A stretch of 63,747 nucleotides of DNA, the filler included, from Globobulimina sp. (taxonomy: Eukaryota): assembly GCA_003354225.1 (NCBI GenBank). It is 28 parts of 28 records of this genome, joined end to end, with 100 filler letters (N's around TTAATTAATTAA, not from the genome) between each part and the next. Parts side by side here need not be neighbours in the genome. Positions count along the whole stretch, not along the records: positions 34,222 to 36,401 come from PIVH01008385.1; 27 more parts are not named here. One strand, given 5' to 3'. A program made the translations under genes and the position numbers. Below, piece after piece: positions 9,020-61,469 of this stretch. The first letter of the stretch is position 1. Every line of letters begins with the position of its first letter. The notes below the pieces were generated by a model. It saw nothing but the letters and a program-made list of their open reading frames with translations. It was not told the DNA's origin and ran no database searches.

Positions 9020-9400
9020 TTTAACATANNNNNNNNNNNNNNNNNNNNNNNNNNNNNNNNNNNNNNNNNNNNTTAATTAATTAANNNNNNNNNNNNNNNN
9101 NNNNNNNNNNNNNNNNNNNNNNNNNNNNAGTGGAGTGATACATTTTTGTTGTGTGTTATTCATTAATATTCAATTTTCAAATCGATAGCGTTAATATTGC
9201 AGAAGTTACCATGACTGACTTGTAGTGACTTGACCTCAGTAATTGTCCAACGTTCTCCATGGTTCTTAGTCCAACGAGCACCACATCATAGCATACGTGA
9301 TATCATATGCATAGATATATTCCTTAAATCGATTTTATAGACATATACAAAAAGAAAGTCGTATAAAACGAGACAGCTACGGTCAAATCCCAACAATGAG

Positions 9401-11065
9401 ATGAATAGCGATGGTTCCTCTGATTATAATACTGATATAAAAGAACAACAATACGTGAAACCCACACAAAGTGATGAAGAAAGCCATGATAATGACAGTG
9501 AATCATCCTATAATATGTCCGATGACATTGATGAAAACAATAATAAATTGCATCGTTCATCGATAAAAAGCGGCAAACAATATGTCGAATTTGAAGATAG
9601 TTTCCATGTCTCCATAAATTGTTACATTTGTCAGAAACATTTTGATGCTTTCATTAAATATCGAGATCATATTAAGCAGCATTTTATTAATGATCCAAAC
9701 AAAACGTGGAGAAAATGCGAGTTTGGCTGCAAAACCACCGCCAAAGGCGATGACTTTGCGTTTGTTGGTCATATTGCAACTCATTCAAATACCAAACCAT
9801 TTCATTGCGATGTATTACTTGATGGCATGCGATGTGGCGCTTCCTTGTCTCGCAAAGCCAATCTCAAAGATCATTGGCGGAGACATTTCCCAAAGGATAT
9901 ATTTGAAAATAAAAGCAGAAAACAAGTACAATTGGAACAAATGAAACGGAATGCCGCATTTGTGGCGTTTGAGGACAGTTATCATGTTTCGGTGCATTGC
10001 CATATTTGCAAAGCTCATTTTGTAGATTTTGAAAAGTATAAAACTGACATACGAAAGCATTATAATATGGACTCTACTAAAATATGGAAAAAATGTGACT
10101 TTGGATGTTCACAGCCGCATTTTCCCGACGTTGTGGCTTTTCTTTCACACATTGCTTATAACCACACCAAAGAGAAACCATTCACATGTGACATAGTTTC
10201 GGATGGAATGAAGTGTGGCACCCAACACTGTCGCAAATCGGATATGAAGAAACATTGGAAAAGACACTTTCTGAGCAAACAAATTGATGAGAAACCAGTG
10301 GACTTTGAAGATAGTTATTATGTGTCTGTTAATTGCCATCTTTGCAAGCGACATTTTACTGAATTTTGTGAATATCGGACCCATATTCGACTGCATTATC
10401 AAAACGATCCGTTGCGTTCATGGTTGCAATGTGATTTTGGATGCAATTCGGCTGGAAATAAGTCATCCTTTTCGAGTGTGCATGGTTTTTTGTATCATAT
10501 TGCATCGCATACAAAGGATTTTGCATTTAAATGTAAGTTGAAAGTCAATGGAAATAAATGTAACGCTGCTATGCCGTTGAAAAGGTGCATTAAAAAACAT
10601 TGGCAAACAAGTCATTGCCGGAAAGCAATCGCAGTGAAAAATAAAACGAATATTATAATTAGCGACGAAAGTGATTATTCAGAGTCGGGATCAGAGACAT
10701 TATCTGGTGACAATATTAATGATTTAAAGGTTTTTGAAGAGAGTTTTATTTTTTGCATACAATGTCATATTTGTAAGTTGCGGTTTGATGATTTTGTTGC
10801 GTACAAAGCGGACATTAAAAACCATTATGTTAATGATGCAAATAGGAAGTGGATGCAATGTGATTTTGGATGCAGTCAAAAAGAAGGCTCAGGAATGCCA
10901 GTGGTATCTTCAAATACTAATAATTTTGTGGCACATATTGCTATGCACACAAAACAGAAACCGTATAAATGCGTTGTTTCTGTGAATGGCATAAAATGTA
11001 CACGAACATCCACCACGAGAGGTGACATAAGAAACCATTGGAGATCAACTCATTCCAAATGTTAA
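9401..11065 (+). CDS. Multi-C2H2 zinc-finger protein made of four modules of about 110 aa, each with three fingers
   Basis: The module FE(D/E)S....NC.ICK..F...Y..(H/D)I..H...W..C(D/E)FGC...F..HIA.H...KPF.C.....C......HW..H occurs four times. Confidence 0.85.
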   Translation: MNSDGSSDYNTDIKEQQYVKPTQSDEESHDNDSESSYNMSDDIDENNNKLHRSSIKSGKQYVEFEDSFHVSINCYICQKHFDAFIKYRDHIKQHFINDPNKTWRKCEFGCKTTAKGDDFAFVGHIATHSNTKPFHCDVLLDGMRCGASLSRKANLKDHWRRHFPKDIFENKSRKQVQLEQMKRNAAFVAFEDSYHVSVHCHICKAHFVDFEKYKTDIRKHYNMDSTKIWKKCDFGCSQPHFPDVVAFLSHIAYNHTKEKPFTCDIVSDGMKCGTQHCRKSDMKKHWKRHFLSKQIDEKPVDFEDSYYVSVNCHLCKRHFTEFCEYRTHIRLHYQNDPLRSWLQCDFGCNSAGNKSSFSSVHGFLYHIASHTKDFAFKCKLKVNGNKCNAAMPLKRCIKKHWQTSHCRKAIAVKNKTNIIISDESDYSESGSETLSGDNINDLKVFEESFIFCIQCHICKLRFDDFVAYKADIKNHYVNDANRKWMQCDFGCSQKEGSGMPVVSSNTNNFVAHIAMHTKQKPYKCVVSVNGIKCTRTSTTRGDIRNHWRSTHSKC

Positions 11066-18377: not shown

Positions 18378-19292
18378 TCAGTTGTGGTGTGAATGAGTGC
18401 TGTTTGAACAACACAACCGATAAAACCCAAAACACATTAAAAAAGGAATCAACATGAAAACCCATCCAATTTTCCCTAAATCAATATTATAGACTGCTGT
18501 ATGTGCATAAAATTGCCTATTTCCACCCCTCTTTACATCATTATTATCCTCGTAATCATACGTATCACCATCACCATTTCCAATTGCATCCAAATTCTGT
18601 TTAATTCCATTAATTTTCCTTTCAATCAGCTCATCGTCGCGATAAACTTCCTCAATGTTTTTACCATTTTTATTCATTGATATTTTAGTCACTTTTTGGC
18701 CGTTGACCCACGACGTGCTTTGCGATTGACTCGTAAATACATTCTGGCCATGGCCACCAAACCCAAAACCACCAAATACATCTTCAATGTCAATACCACC
18801 ACCATCCATATCATCAAACAACTCATCAAAATGTTTAAATCTGCCACGAAACATCTCATCACCAAATGAGTCAGAAAACATATCCTGAAATATATCAAAT
18901 GGATCATTGAAAACATCACGAAAACCATTTAAATTGCCACGATCACAGCGTTTGCGTTGTCGTTCATCGCTCAGTATCTCGTACGCTTGTGCTATTTCCT
19001 TAAATTTAGCATCTGCCTCTTGCTCATTTCCTGGATTTTTCTATGTGTTTTTATAAAGTTATGTGATTTGTGTGCTTATTTTATAGTAAATATTCATTGT
19101 TCATACATCAGGATGCCACTTCATTGCTAATTTTCGGTAGGCTTTTTTTATTTGTTTTGGCGTTGCATCGTTTGATACACCCAACACACCATAATATTCG
19201 CACTGGTTTTTGCAGTGCACACGTTGGAGTTGGAGGAGTATAATAAGTGCAAATGAAATGATGTGTATCACGGAAACTGTCGTTGCCATCAT
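18378..19292 (-). CDS. DnaJ/Hsp40 with signal peptide and C-terminal TM segment; intron 19041-19106
   Basis: Hydrophobic leader, then the J-domain [55 protein letters not shown], a G/F-rich region and a C-terminal hydrophobic helix. Confidence 0.88.
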
Positions 19293-25099: not shown

Positions 25100-26352
25100 T
25101 TTATAAATCTCCAAAAATTAAAATAGAAACAAGTTTGGAAAAATCCGCACCAATAAATAAATGGTTATTAACTATAAAATTAGGAAAAGGGAGGTTTGGC
25201 GAAGTACGATTAGGATTGGGATTGGATAGACATTCAAGCACTGCCTATCAAGGACACTTATTTCATTATGGATTAATACCAAAATACGCAATAAAAAGAG
25301 CAACAATTTGTAAACAAAGAAATGAATATCAAGTACCAACATCGCACGCACTGTCTATTTTGAGAGAGATTAAAATATTAAGAAAAATCAAAAATAGGCA
25401 TGCAAATATTATATCATTTTATGGAAACGGCATGGTTTACGGCAAAATTATAATGTTTCTTGAATGGGTGCCAATTGGTTCAATGTTAAAAGTATTAAAA
25501 ATATGTCATAAATTTGATATTATTATCATTCAAATATATACAAAACAATTAGTTTCTGCTTTAGATTTTTTGCATCAAAATGGCATTTCGCATCGAGATA
25601 TTAAGTCCGCCAACATTTTATTATGTCAGCAAACTGTTTGTAAGATAGCGGATTTTGGTTCGATTCAAACAATTTCAAAAGATATTGTCGCGAAACCATC
25701 ACTTTGTGGCACAAGTTAAGATTATTTTATTTTAATTTTTTTTTTTAATTAATAATTGAAATCAGAATAAATTGATTGATTGAATTGATCAGTTCATTGG
25801 CAACCACCTGAAAACTTTGTAAAAAAGGATAATTATAAAAACAAATTCATGTTAAATAATGATACATTGCATTGTCATGATATATGGAGTTTGGGTGTAA
25901 CTGTCTGTGAAATGTTGAATGGATATCCACCGCATCATACTATGGATATCTATCAATTTATAAATTTTATGAAGAAAACACCAAATAAATATAAGATACC
26001 AAACTCAGTAAATAAAGATTTCAATGATTTTATGTTAAAATGTTTTCAAAGCAAACCACAAAATCGACCAAATACATCACAAATTATCAAACATCCGTTT
26101 ATTACAAAACAAGTGGAGTCATACACTGATAGTCAAATGCAACAATTATTGAATCATAATAAATTATTGCATGCCTTAAATAGAACTGCAACACGAAATG
26201 TAAATAATATAATAAAACAAAATGAACATTTATGGACTGATACGGATTCATTTCATAAATATTATTGTGCTCAAAACACTCCTGAAGCCATTTCAACAAA
26301 GGACAATTGCAAGCAAAATAATAAAATCTATAAAAAATATCCTACACATTAA
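25100..26352 (+). CDS. Ser/Thr protein kinase (STE/MAP3K-like), intron 25715-25792, 5'-truncated
   Basis: LGKGRFG, YAIK, REIKIL, FLEWVPIGS, HRDIKSANILL, ADFG, spliced CGTIHWQPPE, DIWSLGVTVCEM, RPNTSQIIKHPFI. Confidence 0.9.
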
Positions 26353-34121: not shown

Positions 34122-34221
34122 NNNNNNNNNNNNNNNNNNNNNNNNNNNNNNNNNNNNNNNNNNNNTTAATTAATTAANNNNNNNNNNNNNNNNNNNNNNN
34201 NNNNNNNNNNNNNNNNNNNNN

Positions 34222-35028
34222 GCTGATATTAACGAAGTGCTCACATTTGACAGAGTACATAAATCTCGTCTTCATACAATCATTGGCCGAACCAGACATA
34301 GTGCCCAGTTTTCACGACCACTTGCTGTATTAGCCCGTAACTTAGATGCATTCGTATATGCAACACCTGCCTTGCAACAGTATATTAATGTGAACAAGGA
34401 CCTACGTGCAGACTTATGTTTCATAATTTGGGGTATAAATTTCGCGGCAGATACAGGCTCTTCATTTGAGTATGTAGTAAAACCAGCAAACTCCGCTGAC
34501 GTGATTGGATATACGGATGCAGCTAAAGTGCACGGTGGAGTAGGAGGATATTTACATACACCAAAAGGAAGTTGGTTTCAATGTCATTGGAATCAAATTA
34601 AGATGTCTGATCCCACCAAGCGAGACATACAATGGAGGGAGTTAGTGGCTGTCTATATTTTATTGAAAGTTAACAAAAAACGACTACGACATAAAGCCAT
34701 AACAGTTTACTGTGACAATGAACCCGTATGTTGGATGATAAGCAAATTTAGAGCCACTTTGACTAGACCCGACTTACAATGCGTGTTGAGAGAAATCGGA
34801 AAACTCTTAATTGAGAATGAAATCCATCTATGGATGGAACATATCGAGGGTGAAAAGAATATCACCGCGGATAATTTGTCCAGATTTTATAACGAACCTC
34901 TACGTGAGTGTCTGGTACCACTTAAAAATAAACCTACTCGTTGTCAGAAAGCCTTACAAGAGATTACGACATTATGTGAACAGTTCGAAATTGAGCGTCA
35001 ATATTTGGTAAAAGATAAAAAAGACTAG
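34222..35028 (+). CDS. RT connection + DIRS1-type RNase H domain (5'-truncated pol)
   Basis: Catalytic D-E-D-D residues: IGYTDAA...GGVGG, IQWRELVAV, TVYCDNEPV, EHIEGEKNITADNLSR. Confidence 0.9.
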   Translation, partial: ADINEVLTFDRVHKSRLHTIIGRTRHSAQFSRPLAVLARNLDAFVYATPALQQYINVNKDLRADLCFIIWGINFAADTGSSFEYVVKPANSADVIGYTDAAKVHGGVGGYLHTPKGSWFQCHWNQIKMSDPTKRDIQWRELVAVYILLKVNKKRLRHKAITVYCDNEPVCWMISKFRATLTRPDLQCVLREIGKLLIENEIHLWMEHIEGEKNITADNLSRFYNEPLRECLVPLKNKPTRCQKALQEITTLCEQFEIERQYLVKDKKD

Positions 35029-36168
35029 CTTGACCATAGTATCCCCCATTGTTTATTTTATTTCATTTTTTTCTTTCATTCTCACCAAAAATTTTTTCAC
35101 CTCAAACACTCACTTACAACTAAGTTCGCGCTCGAAGATAAGACTGCATATGATTTGGGATTAGCAGCTGACGCAGCACGAACTAGAAAGAAAGATAAAT
35201 CATACATCCGATATTACTTCAAATTTTGCAAAATTAAACAATTGCACTCCCTCAATTTCGTTAGAGAAATGACACCAGAAAAAATGATGGGCAGATTTTT
35301 AGGTTGGCTATATTGGGAAAAAACCTTTAAAGGAAAAGATATCCCACATGGTGTCGCAACAGCTTGTTTAACAGCGTTAGGAAAATACTGGAATGATAAT
35401 GGCTTAACATTCGTCAGAAAAAACCATCCAGCTATATCACGCAAGTTGATTGGGTACAAGAAATGGAGGCCTAGCCTCAAACGAGCGAGAAAACCATGGT
35501 GTTTGACTCATATGAAGCTGGCGATGAAAATACTGTTAAGCTCCAAAACAGAATTATCTCTCACAATAGCAGCTTGCCTAGCCGTTGGTTATTGGTGGGG
35601 TTGTCGGGTCGGTGAGTATACCTCCAGCCCTAGCACCATCGAATTAGGTGATGTTCCATTACGGTTTAAACATTTCACTTGGTTTTTTAATAAAAACGGC
35701 AAACTACTTTCCGTCGCGATAAAAATCGAAAAATCTAAATGTAACCAATACGGAGAGAAAAATGAAACCTTACCAGTCGATTGCACATGCAAAGCGCACG
35801 GTAAAGCAACATGTGGACCACATTTATTGCAAGCATTGTGCAAAGCCAAAGTTAGGTCACGAGGACGTGAATTAAGACGCAATGATTTAATTTTCGAAAA
35901 GTCCTACAGAAAGGCTATGACGGCAGATTGCATCAATAATTCATTGGAGGTGTTGGCCAACCGCATAGGTCTGAAAGGCACCGAGTATCGTAGCCATTCT
36001 TTAAGAATTGGAAGAGCTACCGACTTAGCTCGATCTAATATGCGCGATTATTTAATTGCGCGATGGGGACGTTGGTCCACAGACTGTTGGCAGAAAATTT
36101 ATATCCGGTTAGACTTTACAGATTTAGCAAAGATGTCCAACACGACCATTAGTGCAATAAGACGTTAA
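35029..36168 (+). CDS. Tyrosine recombinase (YR) of the retrotransposon; start codon uncertain
   Basis: GCRVGEY (R), KSKCNQ (K), HSLRIG (HxxR), GRWS (W), QKIYIR (Y). The frame is open from just after the RNase H TAG, and the first ATG is at 35269. Confidence 0.9.
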   Translation, partial: LDHSIPHCLFYFIFFFHSHQKFFHLKHSLTTKFALEDKTAYDLGLAADAARTRKKDKSYIRYYFKFCKIKQLHSLNFVREMTPEKMMGRFLGWLYWEKTFKGKDIPHGVATACLTALGKYWNDNGLTFVRKNHPAISRKLIGYKKWRPSLKRARKPWCLTHMKLAMKILLSSKTELSLTIAACLAVGYWWGCRVGEYTSSPSTIELGDVPLRFKHFTWFFNKNGKLLSVAIKIEKSKCNQYGEKNETLPVDCTCKAHGKATCGPHLLQALCKAKVRSRGRELRRNDLIFEKSYRKAMTADCINNSLEVLANRIGLKGTEYRSHSLRIGRATDLARSNMRDYLIARWGRWSTDCWQKIYIRLDFTDLAKMSNTTISAIRR

Positions 36169-36808
36169 AAGACACTGCCTAAATTAAAAATAAAACAGAC
36201 TTAAAAAGAAAACTTTATTTTGTAACCTTCTAAAGACACGTTGGGGTAACTGTCAAATCCCGTTAGGATCCAACATTTTCGGTGGTCGAAGACTTTGATA
36301 TTGTTTATCCTAAGTTTAGTTGAATTAATAATCGGTAATTATAAACTTTTGATAATATATATCTTAGTCTTTGGTTTGGATCCTACCGACATTACCCGCA
36401 ANNNNNNNNNNNNNNNNNNNNNNNNNNNNNNNNNNNNNNNNNNNNTTAATTAATTAANNNNNNNNNNNNNNNNNNNNNNNNNNNNNNNNNNNNNNNNNNN
36501 NTGGTGACAACAGTGTATACAAAATAGTTAACAAACACTCGTTATCACGATGCGTGATCACTGCAAGGTGTTTTTGATTTGGTTATAACACATATGTGTC
36601 AAATGAGCGTTGTTACCACCTATCAACACTACGCAGGGCGATAAAATAGAACCACAACCATTGTCATTTGAAGTTGCGGTGATTTGATCTCAGATATATC
36701 CCCGGGACAGTTTTTTTGTGTTTTCTATAAAAAGCTTTAATTTCGGAGGCAAACCTAAGGAAGGTCACTATTTAATATTTATATAATAGAATATGAAGAG
36801 AGTTATAA

Positions 36809-48259: not shown

Positions 48260-50077
48260 ATGTCGTCATTAGCGTTAATCGATGCAATGCTAAACGAATT
48301 AGGAGCGACTCAAGGTCAAACTGATGAAAATGACGAAACTATGAACGAAACTACGCAGTCCACCCTTTGTGGCGACAATGAACCTGAAACCAAATTACCC
48401 GACGGATATGACAATTTTGCTGATTTAACCTTAACATTACGCGGTATCCCAGAATACGAAAATTATCCATACACACAGCCAGCAGATAAATTTTTATTTA
48501 TGGCCGACATCAAAGCGCCATTATTCAAGAAAACAATGGAGAGAGCCGCCATTGACTTAGTTTGCGTCATCGATGAGTCCGGCTCCATGCAGGGCGACAG
48601 AATCATTTTAGTCAAACAAACCGTGGAATTTATCATCAAAAATTTAGAATCCAACGACAGATTCGGCATTGTTGGATTTGCCAACGAGTCGCGAGACATA
48701 TTGCCATTAACAAAAATGGACGACGTCGGCAGGAAAATTGCGTTAAACGAATGCAATAAAATTAAAGCGAGCGGAGGTACCGCATTATGCAACGGCTTGA
48801 TTGACGGCATTGAGATGTTGAAGAAAAGAAATAAATTAAATCGAAATAAGATTGCCTCGGCCATGCTGTTTACCGACGGTAAGGCCAATAAAGGCATTAC
48901 AAATAAGATGAAGATCCTCGTCGAAATGGACAAATATTTGATTGCCAACGAAAACGACAAAGAAAAAGAAAAAGATAACAATACCATTGGCACCGACGAC
49001 GATGAAAAACAAAAAGCAAAGGATGTGGTTGAAGGTAAACCGGATGACGAGGCCAAAGAAGATGACATATTTTCATGCTCCATCAACACGTTCGGTGCGT
49101 ATTAAATGCCTATGCCTCTCCAAATACATTCGGTCTGCAATGCATACGGTACACAAACAGGTTTTGGTAAAGATCACAATGCGGCATTGTTGCAAGAGAT
49201 TGCTGAGCGAGGCAACGGAATGTATTCCTTCATCGAGACTCAAGACCTGATCGCCGAGACATTTGCGGAGGCCCTCGGCGGCTTAGTCTCAGTTTGCGGG
49301 CAGAATTTATATGTCACCATCAGCGCATTGAACAATGTGGCCATTCACAAATGTTTGAGCAAAAGATTCAAGAAAAAGGAAATTAAAAAACACAAAGTGA
49401 TGCAGATTATTATTCCAGACATACAATCCGAAGAAAAAAGAAGTTTATTGTTCGAGTTGAACGTGGCCGCCATGGACGAGGAAGAGAAGGATTTTGGGAT
49501 AATTGAGTTCAGCGTGGAATACAACAATACCATTATTAACAAGAAAGAGAGATTGAGCACGATCTGTAGCATAAATCGCGTGAGCGGCGATTTGAAAGAC
49601 ATTGGTGAAGCCAATATGGAGTTGGATATCCAGCATAATCGCATCATTGCTGCCGACGCCATGCAGCAAGCAAACGATGCGGCGGAGAATCGCAAATTAA
49701 ACGAAGCCAGGAAGATTATTAAAAATGCGCAAACTGTGATATCTGGCTCGCGCTCCAAAGAGGAGACTTTTTGTGCGACGTTGGTGCATGATTTGGAGCA
49801 GTGTTTAACGAAATTAGTGTCGGAGTATGAGTACAGTTCGAGCGGTCGGCAGTATATGATGATGAACAGTATGTCGCACGGATACCAGCGAAGTACGCAG
49901 TCCTCCAATATCATGAATTCGTCGCAAATGCGGTATAGAACGTCGCATCGAGCGTGTATGATGACCAATTTTAATCGGTCGCCAAATCCAAATCCAAATC
50001 CACAACTTGCAACTTTCCCAGCGAGAGATGATCAGAAAAGTAATATCAAGAATAATAATAATAATAAGCAAAAGAAT
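48260..50077 (+). CDS. vWA domain protein with a C-terminal helical extension; intron 49095-49160
   Basis: RAAIDLVCVIDESGSMQG...DRFGIVGF...ASGGTAL...MLFTDGKAN...SINTFG|FGKDHNAALLQEIAERGNGMYSFIE...FAEALGGLVSV. Confidence 0.9.
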
Positions 50078-59191: not shown

Positions 59192-59747
59192 NNNNNNNNN
59201 NNNNNNNNNNNNNNNNNNNNNNNNNNNNNNNNNNNTTAATTAATTAANNNNNNNNNNNNNNNNNNNNNNNNNNNNNNNNNNNNNNNNNNNNGGATCAACA
59301 ACTCTTAACCGAGATACGAGAGCGCGATTCCAATTATAAAAAATTACCATTATGGCGGGAATTGCAAAAACCATTGAAATATCCCATCGAGCCGCCAACA
59401 ATCAAATTATCAAACAATGCCCAAATATTGTTGAATTTGCTGCACTCAAATCAAATTGGAAAATTTCAGTTCAATAAGAAATTCTTAAATCTTCAATTCA
59501 TAAAACAGTTTGTTTTGAAAACATTGCAAAATATGAATAAAATAAATGAGAAAGAATTTGAAATGAAATGCTTGCTGAAATTAAGAGACGTAATCAGAGA
59601 GTTAAGTCGTTTGGAAAAAATCAAATTGATTGACGTACATCAAGATATTTATATTGTTCACAACTAAAAATCAAAAACTTAAAAACATTGTAGGATCAAC
59701 TTTAGCAATTATTTATTTTTTAGAATCAACAAAACAAACAAAGAAAC

Positions 59748-61469
59748 ATGTATGACGACATAATACATTTAGCGATGGATCAACAACTCTTAACCGAGAT
59801 ACGAGAGCGCGATTCCAATTATAAAAAATTACCATTATGGCGGGAATTGCAAAAAAACGAATCAACGGCAGAACTCGAACAGCAATTGTCTGAAGACGGC
59901 TTATTGAACTTCGAGACCGTCTTCCATGAGCCGGTGGGTTACCATTTAATGCAATCTTTCTTACAAACCGAGCACTCAGTGGACAAAGCCGTATTCATTG
60001 CCGACGTCGAGATCTATAAAACCTTGCAAGATCCCCGAGCGCGCGAGAACGTATCGCGCAAAATCTATGAACGGTTCTGTGCGCCCGAAGAGAAGGCCAC
60101 TACGCGCAGCAAAGGCATGTCTGTCTTTCGCCGCAAAGAAGAAGAAGACCTCAAAGGTACCCATACCTATATACACCACGCAAATTCGCAACGCCTCAAA
60201 TATAACACGCAAAAAAGGCGCGGGCGCCTCTCACAAACCACCCGTTCCCAGCAAGGCCCGCAATAACACGGCCACCGCCACCAAAGGCGCAGAGGAAGAG
60301 CAACAGTTAAAAGACGACAGCGGCGACGACCTGGACGACCCATCCAAGTACGAACTGTCATTATTGACAGAGAACACAAACAGCATTGGCGTGTATGGCC
60401 GACCTATTCGCAAATTAAAGCAAAAGCTATCCGTAGCGGGCTCGCCGGAGAACAACATCTTTGACGAGATCGCCGCCGAGGTCTATAACGACCTCCGTTT
60501 GGACGTTTTCCCTCGTTTCTGCCGCTCCCATTTGTACGAAATGTACTTACGCTGCAAAACCATCGAGTTGGCCACCATCACCGTGCGCGACTTCCACCAA
60601 ATGCGCATGTTAGGCCGCGGCGCGTTTGGCTGCGTCAATGCGTGCAAGAAGAAGGACACCGGCAAGTTGTACGCGATGAAGCAGATCAACAAAAAGCGAG
60701 TGTCGGCCACGGAGTCGTGCGACACTATCATGTCGGAACGCAACTTCCTGGCGGATATGGACAGCGTCTTTGTGACCACGCTCAAGTATGCCTTCATGGA
60801 CGACGTGACTCTGTACTTGATCTTGGATTTGATGATCGGCGGCGATTTGAAGTTCCATTTGAATAACGATAAGACGTTCAGCGAGGATCGCAGTCGTTTT
60901 TACGCCGCCGAGGTGCTGTTGGGATTGGAACATATCCACAGCAAAGGCATTATTTAGCGCGACTTGAAGTTGGAGAATGTGTTGGTGGACGAACGCGGAC
61001 ATTGCAAGATCAGCGACTTGGGATTGGCGGTGCGAATGTCTGGCGACCCCGTCAAGGGCTATGCCGGTACGCCGGGCTACACTGCGCCGGAGGTGGTGCT
61101 GTCGCATTATTACGACCATATTGTGGACTTCTTCAGTTTGGGCGTGATGATCTATAGGTTTTTGTGCGGAAAGAAACCGTTTCAGTCCAAGCGGAGACAT
61201 GGCCGCCGCCATGGGGAGAATCGCGCGGATAATCAGCGACGGCGCACCACGGAGTTGGACCGCAATGTGGTTGAGATGGAGCCGGATTTCCCCAGTCAGT
61301 ATTTTGTGCCGCAGGCAAAGTCTATTTTGAAGGGATTGTTATGTAAGAACCCCAAGAAACGGATGGGCTTTTCCGGGATTAATGAGATTAAACAGCATCC
61401 GTGGTTTGACAGCATTGACTTTGGACTGTTGGAGGCCGGGTATTTGGACCCGCCGTTTGTGCCGAGTCT
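59748..61469 (+). CDS. GRK: G protein-coupled receptor kinase-like (RGS domain + AGC kinase), intron about 60157-60217, in-frame TAG at 60955-60957, 3'-truncated
   Basis: RGS: FETVFHEPVGYHLMQSFL...KIYERF...FPRFCRS. Kinase: DFHQMRMLGRGAFGCV...DTGKLYAMK...LDLMIGGDLKFHL...FYAAEVLLGLEHIH...II*RDLKLENVL...ISDLGLA...GTPGY.APEV. DLG is GRK-typical. Confidence 0.9.

Follow-up and report, generated by a model that had tools for sequence, protein, structure and literature searches.

The DNA analysed here, hereafter the window, is a 63,747-base stretch of Globobulimina sp. composed of 28 separate, unrelated contigs of 2178–2182 bp each, arranged in order of length, with N44-TTAATTAATTAA-N44 spacers between them (e.g. 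34122-34221), across which features are not to be read as continuous. One of these contigs, at positions 34222-36401 (2180 bp, 38.7% G+C, within a range of 26 to 46% over the 28 contigs), carries on one strand an RNase H homologous to the pol proteins that combine reverse transcriptase (RT) with RNase H (RH), followed by a Cre-like tyrosine recombinase (YR). The YR retrotransposon described here in the initial annotation is thus borne out as a fragment. Position 34222, given as the start of the element, is the first base of the contig; it lies inside pol and marks no element boundary. Since the contig begins there, the element is cut inside pol, and RT and gag fall beyond the contig end. The contig contains the following features, beginning with the pol open reading frame (ORF).

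34222..35025, + strand: 3′ part of the pol ORF, with the RT connection region and the RNase H domain, 5′ end cut by the contig end (Pfam RT_RNaseH, E 0.0069, below cut-off)
35026..35028, + strand: pol terminator TAG, next base C; residue 269 of the window's frame, among the clustered C-termini of pol homologs
35029..35100, + strand: G-poor, pyrimidine-rich spacer, giving an F/H-rich peptide in frame 0; no homolog aligns
35101..35154, + strand: probable N-terminal extension of the first recombinase helix, upstream of any ATG, GTG or TTG (BLASTP to database protein P0010, and structural model)
35150..35164, + strand: out-of-frame mini-ORF ATG ATT TGG GAT TAG (MIWD, stop) overlapping TTG 35155; end of the frame 35012..35164
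35155..36168, + strand: ORF of the tyrosine recombinase, a Cre-like enzyme of two domains; taken from TTG, with 337 codons before TAA (weak Pfam match to Phage_integrase, E 3e-4)
35269..35271, + strand: first ATG in frame (M81 in the frame of 379 residues), after model helices 8-47 and 50-69
36169..36401, + strand: 3′ non-coding sequence, 233 nucleotides (nt) to the contig end; only short, chance-level repeats seen

All coordinates of the initial annotation agreed with our reading of the sequence. The RNase H frame is open over 34222-35025 and ends with AAA GAC TAG, the TAG lying at 35026-35028. Past this stop, a further 379 codons (35029-36165) are open in this frame, up to a TAA at 36166-36168, and their translation contains RTRKKDKSYIRYYFKFC. 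No in-frame ATG, GTG or TTG is found between the TAG and TTG 35155, a codon with G at both -3 and +4. From the pol stop to the recombinase domain there is a single ATG, at 35150; it is out of frame and opens an ORF of four codons. The recombinase has no AUG of its own.

In the RNase H half, all 20 of the aligned pol proteins carry D99, E140, D165 and D217. The long homologs on this side (572-673 residues; P0007, P0013, P0023 and P0048) bear an RVT_1 domain upstream and stop just after RNase H. No Pfam match to a methyltransferase domain was obtained in the element or in these long pol homologs.

The recombinase half was modelled as the entire 379-residue frame. The AlphaFold model (35 sequences) has a mean predicted local distance difference test score (pLDDT) of 90.3, and its best PDB matches in Foldseek are Cre (E 6e-10, template modelling scores 0.62/0.74), then XerH, IntI and lambda Int. 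Residues R193, K237, R326 and R348 are nearly invariant across 35 sequences, and the protein shows HSLRIGR, WGRW and KIYIRLD with its conserved Y, positions which we take to fill the catalytic roles R..K..HxxR..W..Y. With four of four RNase H residues conserved, and with these recombinase positions set in a predicted Cre-like fold, the catalytic residues of both enzymes appear intact, as initially proposed. From this one copy, the recently active family suggested in the initial annotation is a possibility at most. The first in-frame ATG had been described as lying after the N-terminal helix. This holds in the model, where two N-terminal helices (8-47 and 50-69) precede ATG 35269 and would be deleted by a start at this codon. 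At the other end, a BLASTP alignment to P0010 begins at query residue 294, 18 residues upstream of TTG 35155, and inside helix 8-47 the pLDDT climbs from 71 (residues 21-30) to 85 (residues 31-40). Because both this homology and the rising model confidence reach upstream of the TTG, the last ~18 linker codons are probably recombinase coding sequence.

The order of the domains allowed us to place the element. Elements in which RT/RNase H is followed by YR without a methyltransferase between them are of the Ngaro type, while DIRS1-like and PAT-like elements carry a methyltransferase after RNase H (PMC4157794). On this basis, by domain order and not by a tree, the contig is assigned as the 3′ half of a Ngaro-type YR retrotransposon. 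DIRS1-like or PAT-like membership was ruled out by the absence of a methyltransferase domain after RNase H. A Crypton, that is a YR DNA transposon, was also ruled out, an RNase H ORF of the RT-RH pol type lying 126 nt upstream on the same strand.

We then compared the pol-YR junction with that of relatives. A profile search using the frame read through the TAG (TAG taken as Q) gave 1029 relatives, of which the best 150, together with P0005, were aligned locally (151 proteins, phmmer). The RNase H half alone was matched by 88 and the recombinase half alone by 63; none spanned both, and query residues 278-294 were covered by no alignment among the best 150 of the 1029. Pol homologs have their C-terminus within ~25 residues after RNase H. 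Projected on the query, these ends cluster at residues 251-295, many of them at 264-271, right behind a [QK][YF]L motif, as in P0023 (...KEQYLVKGDDDL) and P0007 (...EIERQYLKFN). Since residue 269 of the window falls where the pol of relatives ends, its TAG is, as judged by these alignments, the normal pol end of the family and no private nonsense mutation. Recombinase ORFs of relatives begin 20-50 residues past the pol end: projected on the query, the N-terminus falls at residues 289-325 in 28 of the 63 YR homologs and earlier in none, the others being truncated at this end. One protein, P0017, was considered as a fusion and rejected, as its two matched stretches correspond to an internal RT/RH duplication.

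One could expect the first residue of these proteins to indicate where the recombinase of relatives starts. P0002, 88% identical, begins MGLAADAERTKKK..., with its M exactly at the window's TTG 35155, and we considered that relatives (P0002, P0069 and P0049) carry an ATG in this column and that the TTG is private to the window. This was dropped, the database M being often placed on a conserved Leu. Of 20 database fragments whose M falls within the stretch of homology, 6 have it opposite a Leu of the window, compared to a background of 10%, and two of these M sites lie at the conserved LTA and LGD motifs. Of the 13 homologs spanning the TTG 35155 column, 10 have Leu in it; it is also where four proteins 'start', with three more beginning at the next Leu-rich column. 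An N-terminal M on a conserved family Leu is seen in P0031, P0040, P0063, P0100, P0002 and P0069. It is likely, from these sequences, that the database prints TTG-type starts on eukaryotic DNA as M. As the M so often sits on a conserved Leu, it is unusable as evidence for an AUG. Given a TTG column that is a conserved Leu, and an M that likely reflects TTG start calls, we infer that the missing AUG is probably common to the relatives and no private mutation; in the simplest reading they have no ATG, GTG or TTG further upstream. The DNA of relatives was also sought in genome contigs, where none was confirmed among 70 pattern matches (5-sequence alignment) or among 28 (single protein).

The linker between the TAG and TTG 35155 (35029-35154, 126 nt) has a biased composition, with 49 T, 35 A, 31 C and 11 G. 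That it contains no ATG, GTG or TTG is explained by its G-poor make-up. In 40-nt windows of the spacer the pyrimidine fraction is 0.6-0.82 and that of G 0-0.12, and F and H together make up 33% of the 42 linker codons compared to 6% in the ORFs. The codon-usage score of the linker in frame 0 is -0.003 per codon with the element's own model and 0.073 with the host model, where window means in the ORFs are 0.22-0.29 and 0.08-0.09, respectively.

How, then, could the recombinase be produced? The reading that we put first, tentatively and without calling it probable, is a low-level UAG read-through giving an RT-RH-YR fusion. Pol ends at TAG 35026, the usual terminator position of the family. After ~70 nt of G-poor, pyrimidine-rich spacer the recombinase reading frame resumes without a shift, and homology to relatives sets in ~18 codons upstream of TTG 35155, the first codon resembling a start. 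Occasional read-through of a leaky UAG-C would then yield a little RT-RNase H-recombinase fusion beside the bulk of RT-RNase H. Such a fusion would stay in one piece, since YR retrotransposons are described as lacking a protease (PMC3783388), and a fused enzyme is not absurd in view of the single-ORF TATE copies of Bodo saltans (PMC6681497). We infer this route from a single in-frame TAG-C followed by 379 open codons and by a domain without its own AUG. The two ORFs are intact through 605 codons and keep every catalytic residue, which makes a private hit on a 3-nt start codon unlikely.

Several observations weigh against read-through. No fused RH-YR protein is present among the 151 aligned proteins, although it would have ranked at the top of the profile search. 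None was found either by a word search centred on the junction (query residues 215-375; proteins 356-1134 residues long; 0 matches from 120 candidates) or by the 'shorter' search for fused forms (0 matches from 244 candidates). The read-through product would include an odd F/H-rich peptide, CLFYFIFFFHSH, encoded by the first 24 linker codons. The shared frame is itself weak evidence, since the make-up of this linker leaves two of its three frames free of stops: the same frame (1/3) that is also open (~2/3) has a chance of ~0.2, and its occurrence in this copy corresponds to a likelihood ratio of ~4-5 in favour of read-through. In shuffled linkers a frame is open at 0.106, that is 0.035 for in-frame-and-open. 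The relation between the pol and YR frames also varies in the superfamily (PMC3783388, PMC9210276), suggesting that the frame is usually irrelevant and giving read-through a low prior. The one close relative does not keep the in-frame TAG: P0018 (98 residues, 88% identical) ends ...QYLVKDTRLT, where the window reads ...QYLVKDKKD-TAG-LDHS, and its TRLT is the window's +1 frame across the TAG (ACT AGC TTG ACC), indicating an indel. This counts only weakly against conservation of the TAG, since that relative is decayed. This relative, P0002/P0018, 86-88% identical, is a decayed copy: P0002 ends ...RDAGPPIAGRRFMSG, again the window's +1 frame, through a C-terminal frameshift by which the catalytic Tyr region is lost. 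Finally, the UAG-C read-through suggested in the initial annotation gained no positive sign from its context. Known read-through motifs are of the CARYYA and CUAG types, and both are absent from UAG CUU GAC, in which only the C at +4 is favourable. The 151 nt from 35020 fold at -12.8 kcal/mol compared to a shuffle mean of -17.2 kcal/mol (z = +1.5; 193 of 200 shuffles of the 151 nt around the stop fold at least as well), and no Rfam match of the contig was obtained at E <= 1.

Three introns and a kinase gene on other contigs of the window serve for comparison with the alternatives to read-through.

49095-49160: host intron of a VWA gene, 66 nt, GTGCGT...ACAG
19041-19105, - strand: host intron of a DnaJ gene, 65 nt, GTATGA...CATAG
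about 25712-25787: host intron of a kinase gene, 76 nt, GTTAAG...ATCAG
59950-61467, + strand: GRK-like gene with an RGS fragment and an AGC kinase domain; TAG at 60955-60957; Pkinase match unbroken, profile 1-263

The VWA intron is a multiple of three in length and contains an in-frame TAA, and so mimics a single-stop read-through. The in-frame TAG of the GRK-like gene may reflect a nonsense allele, a pseudogene or an error, or else point to a leaky or reassigned UAG.

The recombinase may instead be a separate cistron whose shared frame is due to chance, a reading we regard as possible but rather unlikely. It could have a non-AUG start of its own, at a near-cognate codon (UUG 35155, or ATC, ATT or AAG in the linker) reached after internal entry or reinitiation across an AUG-free, unstructured spacer; or the ATG of the family, at the position of the TTG, could have been lost in a defective copy from which no full recombinase would be made. 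The fixed places at which pol ends and YR starts cluster are consistent with two cistrons, as are the 151 relatives of which none spans both halves, the 28 of 63 YR homologs starting at residues 289-325 and none earlier, the variable frames among Ngaro elements, the chance of ~0.2 calculated above and the clusters of stand-alone YR-like proteins of 345-354 residues found in eukaryotes in the Atlas. The spacer is in addition unstructured, without ATG before 35150, and TTG 35155 has G at -3 and +4. Nevertheless, UUG is a poor initiator, homology and model confidence reach upstream of it, and the one ATG in its vicinity (35150) lies in another frame, with a 4-codon ORF that runs across the TTG. 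The M of the database proteins cannot be read as an ATG, and a private loss of the start codon would be unlikely in a copy with 605 intact codons. Splicing, which we consider improbable, would account for the missing AUG, for the odd linker peptide and for the variable frames of the superfamily, either through a local intron from GT 35008 to AG 35124 or 35142 fusing pol to YR, or through a subgenomic RNA with the AUG of a 5′ exon and an acceptor behind the pyrimidine tract. Of the local intron proposed in the initial annotation, the sequence does contain, in phase 0, the donor-like TTG|GTAAAA (GT 35008-09) and the AAG| ends at 35124 and 35142; a long pyrimidine tract leads into CTCAC/CTTAC and from there to the first AG, at 35123-24, and exon 2 would open at FALEDK..., where model confidence climbs. 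In contrast, the proposed intron is atypical in its acceptor and length when set against the host introns, a comparison that rests on three introns: all three candidate acceptors are AAG whereas the host introns end in CAG, TAG and CAG, its 117 or 135 nt compare to 65, 66 and 76 nt, and no pyrimidine tract directly precedes the host acceptors. Moreover, the pol relatives P0007, P0030 and P0048 read KF instead of VK after the [QK][YF]L motif, so that the GT donor would not be conserved, to judge from the proteins.

A further alternative is that the host reads UAG as sense or near-sense, perhaps as Tyr, and that pol, linker and YR form one ORF. We consider this very improbable, and equally so the broader proposal that it would entail, namely a UAG-specific change of the nuclear code, or an unusually high natural suppression, in a eukaryote that does not look like a ciliate, with a retrotransposon adapted to UAG. 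In the GRK-like kinase gene (contig 59292-61469), the one in-frame TAG stands at the position of the Tyr in GRK1's IIYRDLKPEN. The stops of the 27 ORFs of at least 200 residues that end inside contigs are TAA in 18, TGA in 7 and TAG in 2; both TAG ORFs (35026 and 60955) precede a long open stretch in the same frame, compared to 1 of 25 for TAA or TGA (an intron), and none of the 27 is an ordinary gene end using TAG. UAG-only reassignment with UAA kept as stop is known in ciliates (PMC11687900, PMC5304391). Against such a code, the kinase is the one cellular case, and a TAY codon becomes TAG by a single base change. Its contig has 46% G+C compared to 26-43% in the other 27, and may represent another organism, a pseudogene or an error. 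The ~4400 codons of seven long ORFs contain no TAG, no tRNA genes are found in the window, the pol of distant relatives ends at this position too, and the genes present (GRK, G-alpha, ARMC9) resemble those of a standard-code eukaryote. Of 30 candidate frames containing an internal TAG, 12 were put through a Pfam scan, in which the kinase alone had a domain extending over the TAG; the other 18 overlap known ORFs in other frames or strands.

Taken together, the locus is an ordinary partial Ngaro-type copy, and its frame arrangement is already reported for the superfamily. The translation of the recombinase in YR retrotransposons is an unsettled matter. Our literature search found no paper that deals with read-through, splicing or internal initiation at the YR ORFs of Ngaro or DIRS elements, and the available part of the DIRS-1 mechanism paper leaves the translation route of the YR ORF unaddressed. 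How this AUG-less recombinase is made is a modestly interesting question, and the value of the locus is mainly that of a lead: a recombinase natively without AUG and in frame behind one leaky stop would, if true, provide a simple, testable case. There is also a methodological point, that an N-terminal M in large predicted-protein collections may be a TTG call on eukaryotic DNA and no proof of an AUG.

No further copy of the element was found in the window, where blastn and tblastn searches of the contig and its two proteins against the 28 contigs matched only the contig itself. No terminal repeats were found in this contig, which starts inside pol and ends 233 nt past the YR stop. Its 3′ non-coding tail contains, near the contig end, two 18-nt inverted arms, 83% complementary, at 36256-36273 and 36376-36393. 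Genes on the other contigs include TBP, MCM, G-alpha, ARMC9, a Piwi-domain protein, kinases, ENTH and a mitochondrial carrier. The G-alpha protein, when queried against the ESM Atlas, matched only generic G-alpha clusters of eukaryotes. At 9341-11062 (+ strand), an ORF of 574 residues has four similar Cys/His-rich repeats of ~125 residues (...EDS.HVS..C.IC...F......), with a weak zf-H2C2_2 match only.

Among known systems, murine leukaemia virus gag-pol and the tobamovirus replicase share with the element a single in-frame UAG, placed after one enzyme ORF and ahead of an enzyme domain without its own AUG. In contrast to these, no known stimulatory hexanucleotide, pseudoknot or hairpin is found here, and a pyrimidine-rich, low-complexity tract lies downstream of the stop. 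DIRS1-like and PAT-like elements also combine an RT/RNase H pol with a YR ORF, the ORFs often overlapping or abutting, but have a methyltransferase after RNase H, where the element has only 126 nt between the pol stop and TTG 35155. The TATE elements of Bodo saltans, likened here by description only, provide a precedent for all domains in one ORF: in the available text of PMC6681497 ORFs frequently overlapped, and two Bodo saltans copies are single-ORF. They belong to a kinetoplastid lineage, however, and have no stop between the domains. The nearest system is the Ngaro superfamily (order DIRS), with RT/RNase H then a Cre-like YR on one strand and no methyltransferase between them. Its hallmarks include split direct repeats of the form A1-[ORFs]-B1A2B2, with internal repeats downstream of YR, and a gag-like ORF1, the present element being known only from the 3′ part of pol to 233 nt past YR. 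It differs in that its YR frame has no ATG before the first helices, whereas in the two Ngaro-like families of Xenopus all ORFs overlap and were called from ATG, by an ATG-only ORF finder (PMC9210276). YR ORFs had initially been described as usually separate or overlapping in another frame. In fungal Ngaro elements, however, the YR ORF is reported to share the frame of RT-RH or to be frameshifted, in all groups (PMC3783388), and the same-frame arrangement of our element is thus one of the variable states already found in this superfamily.

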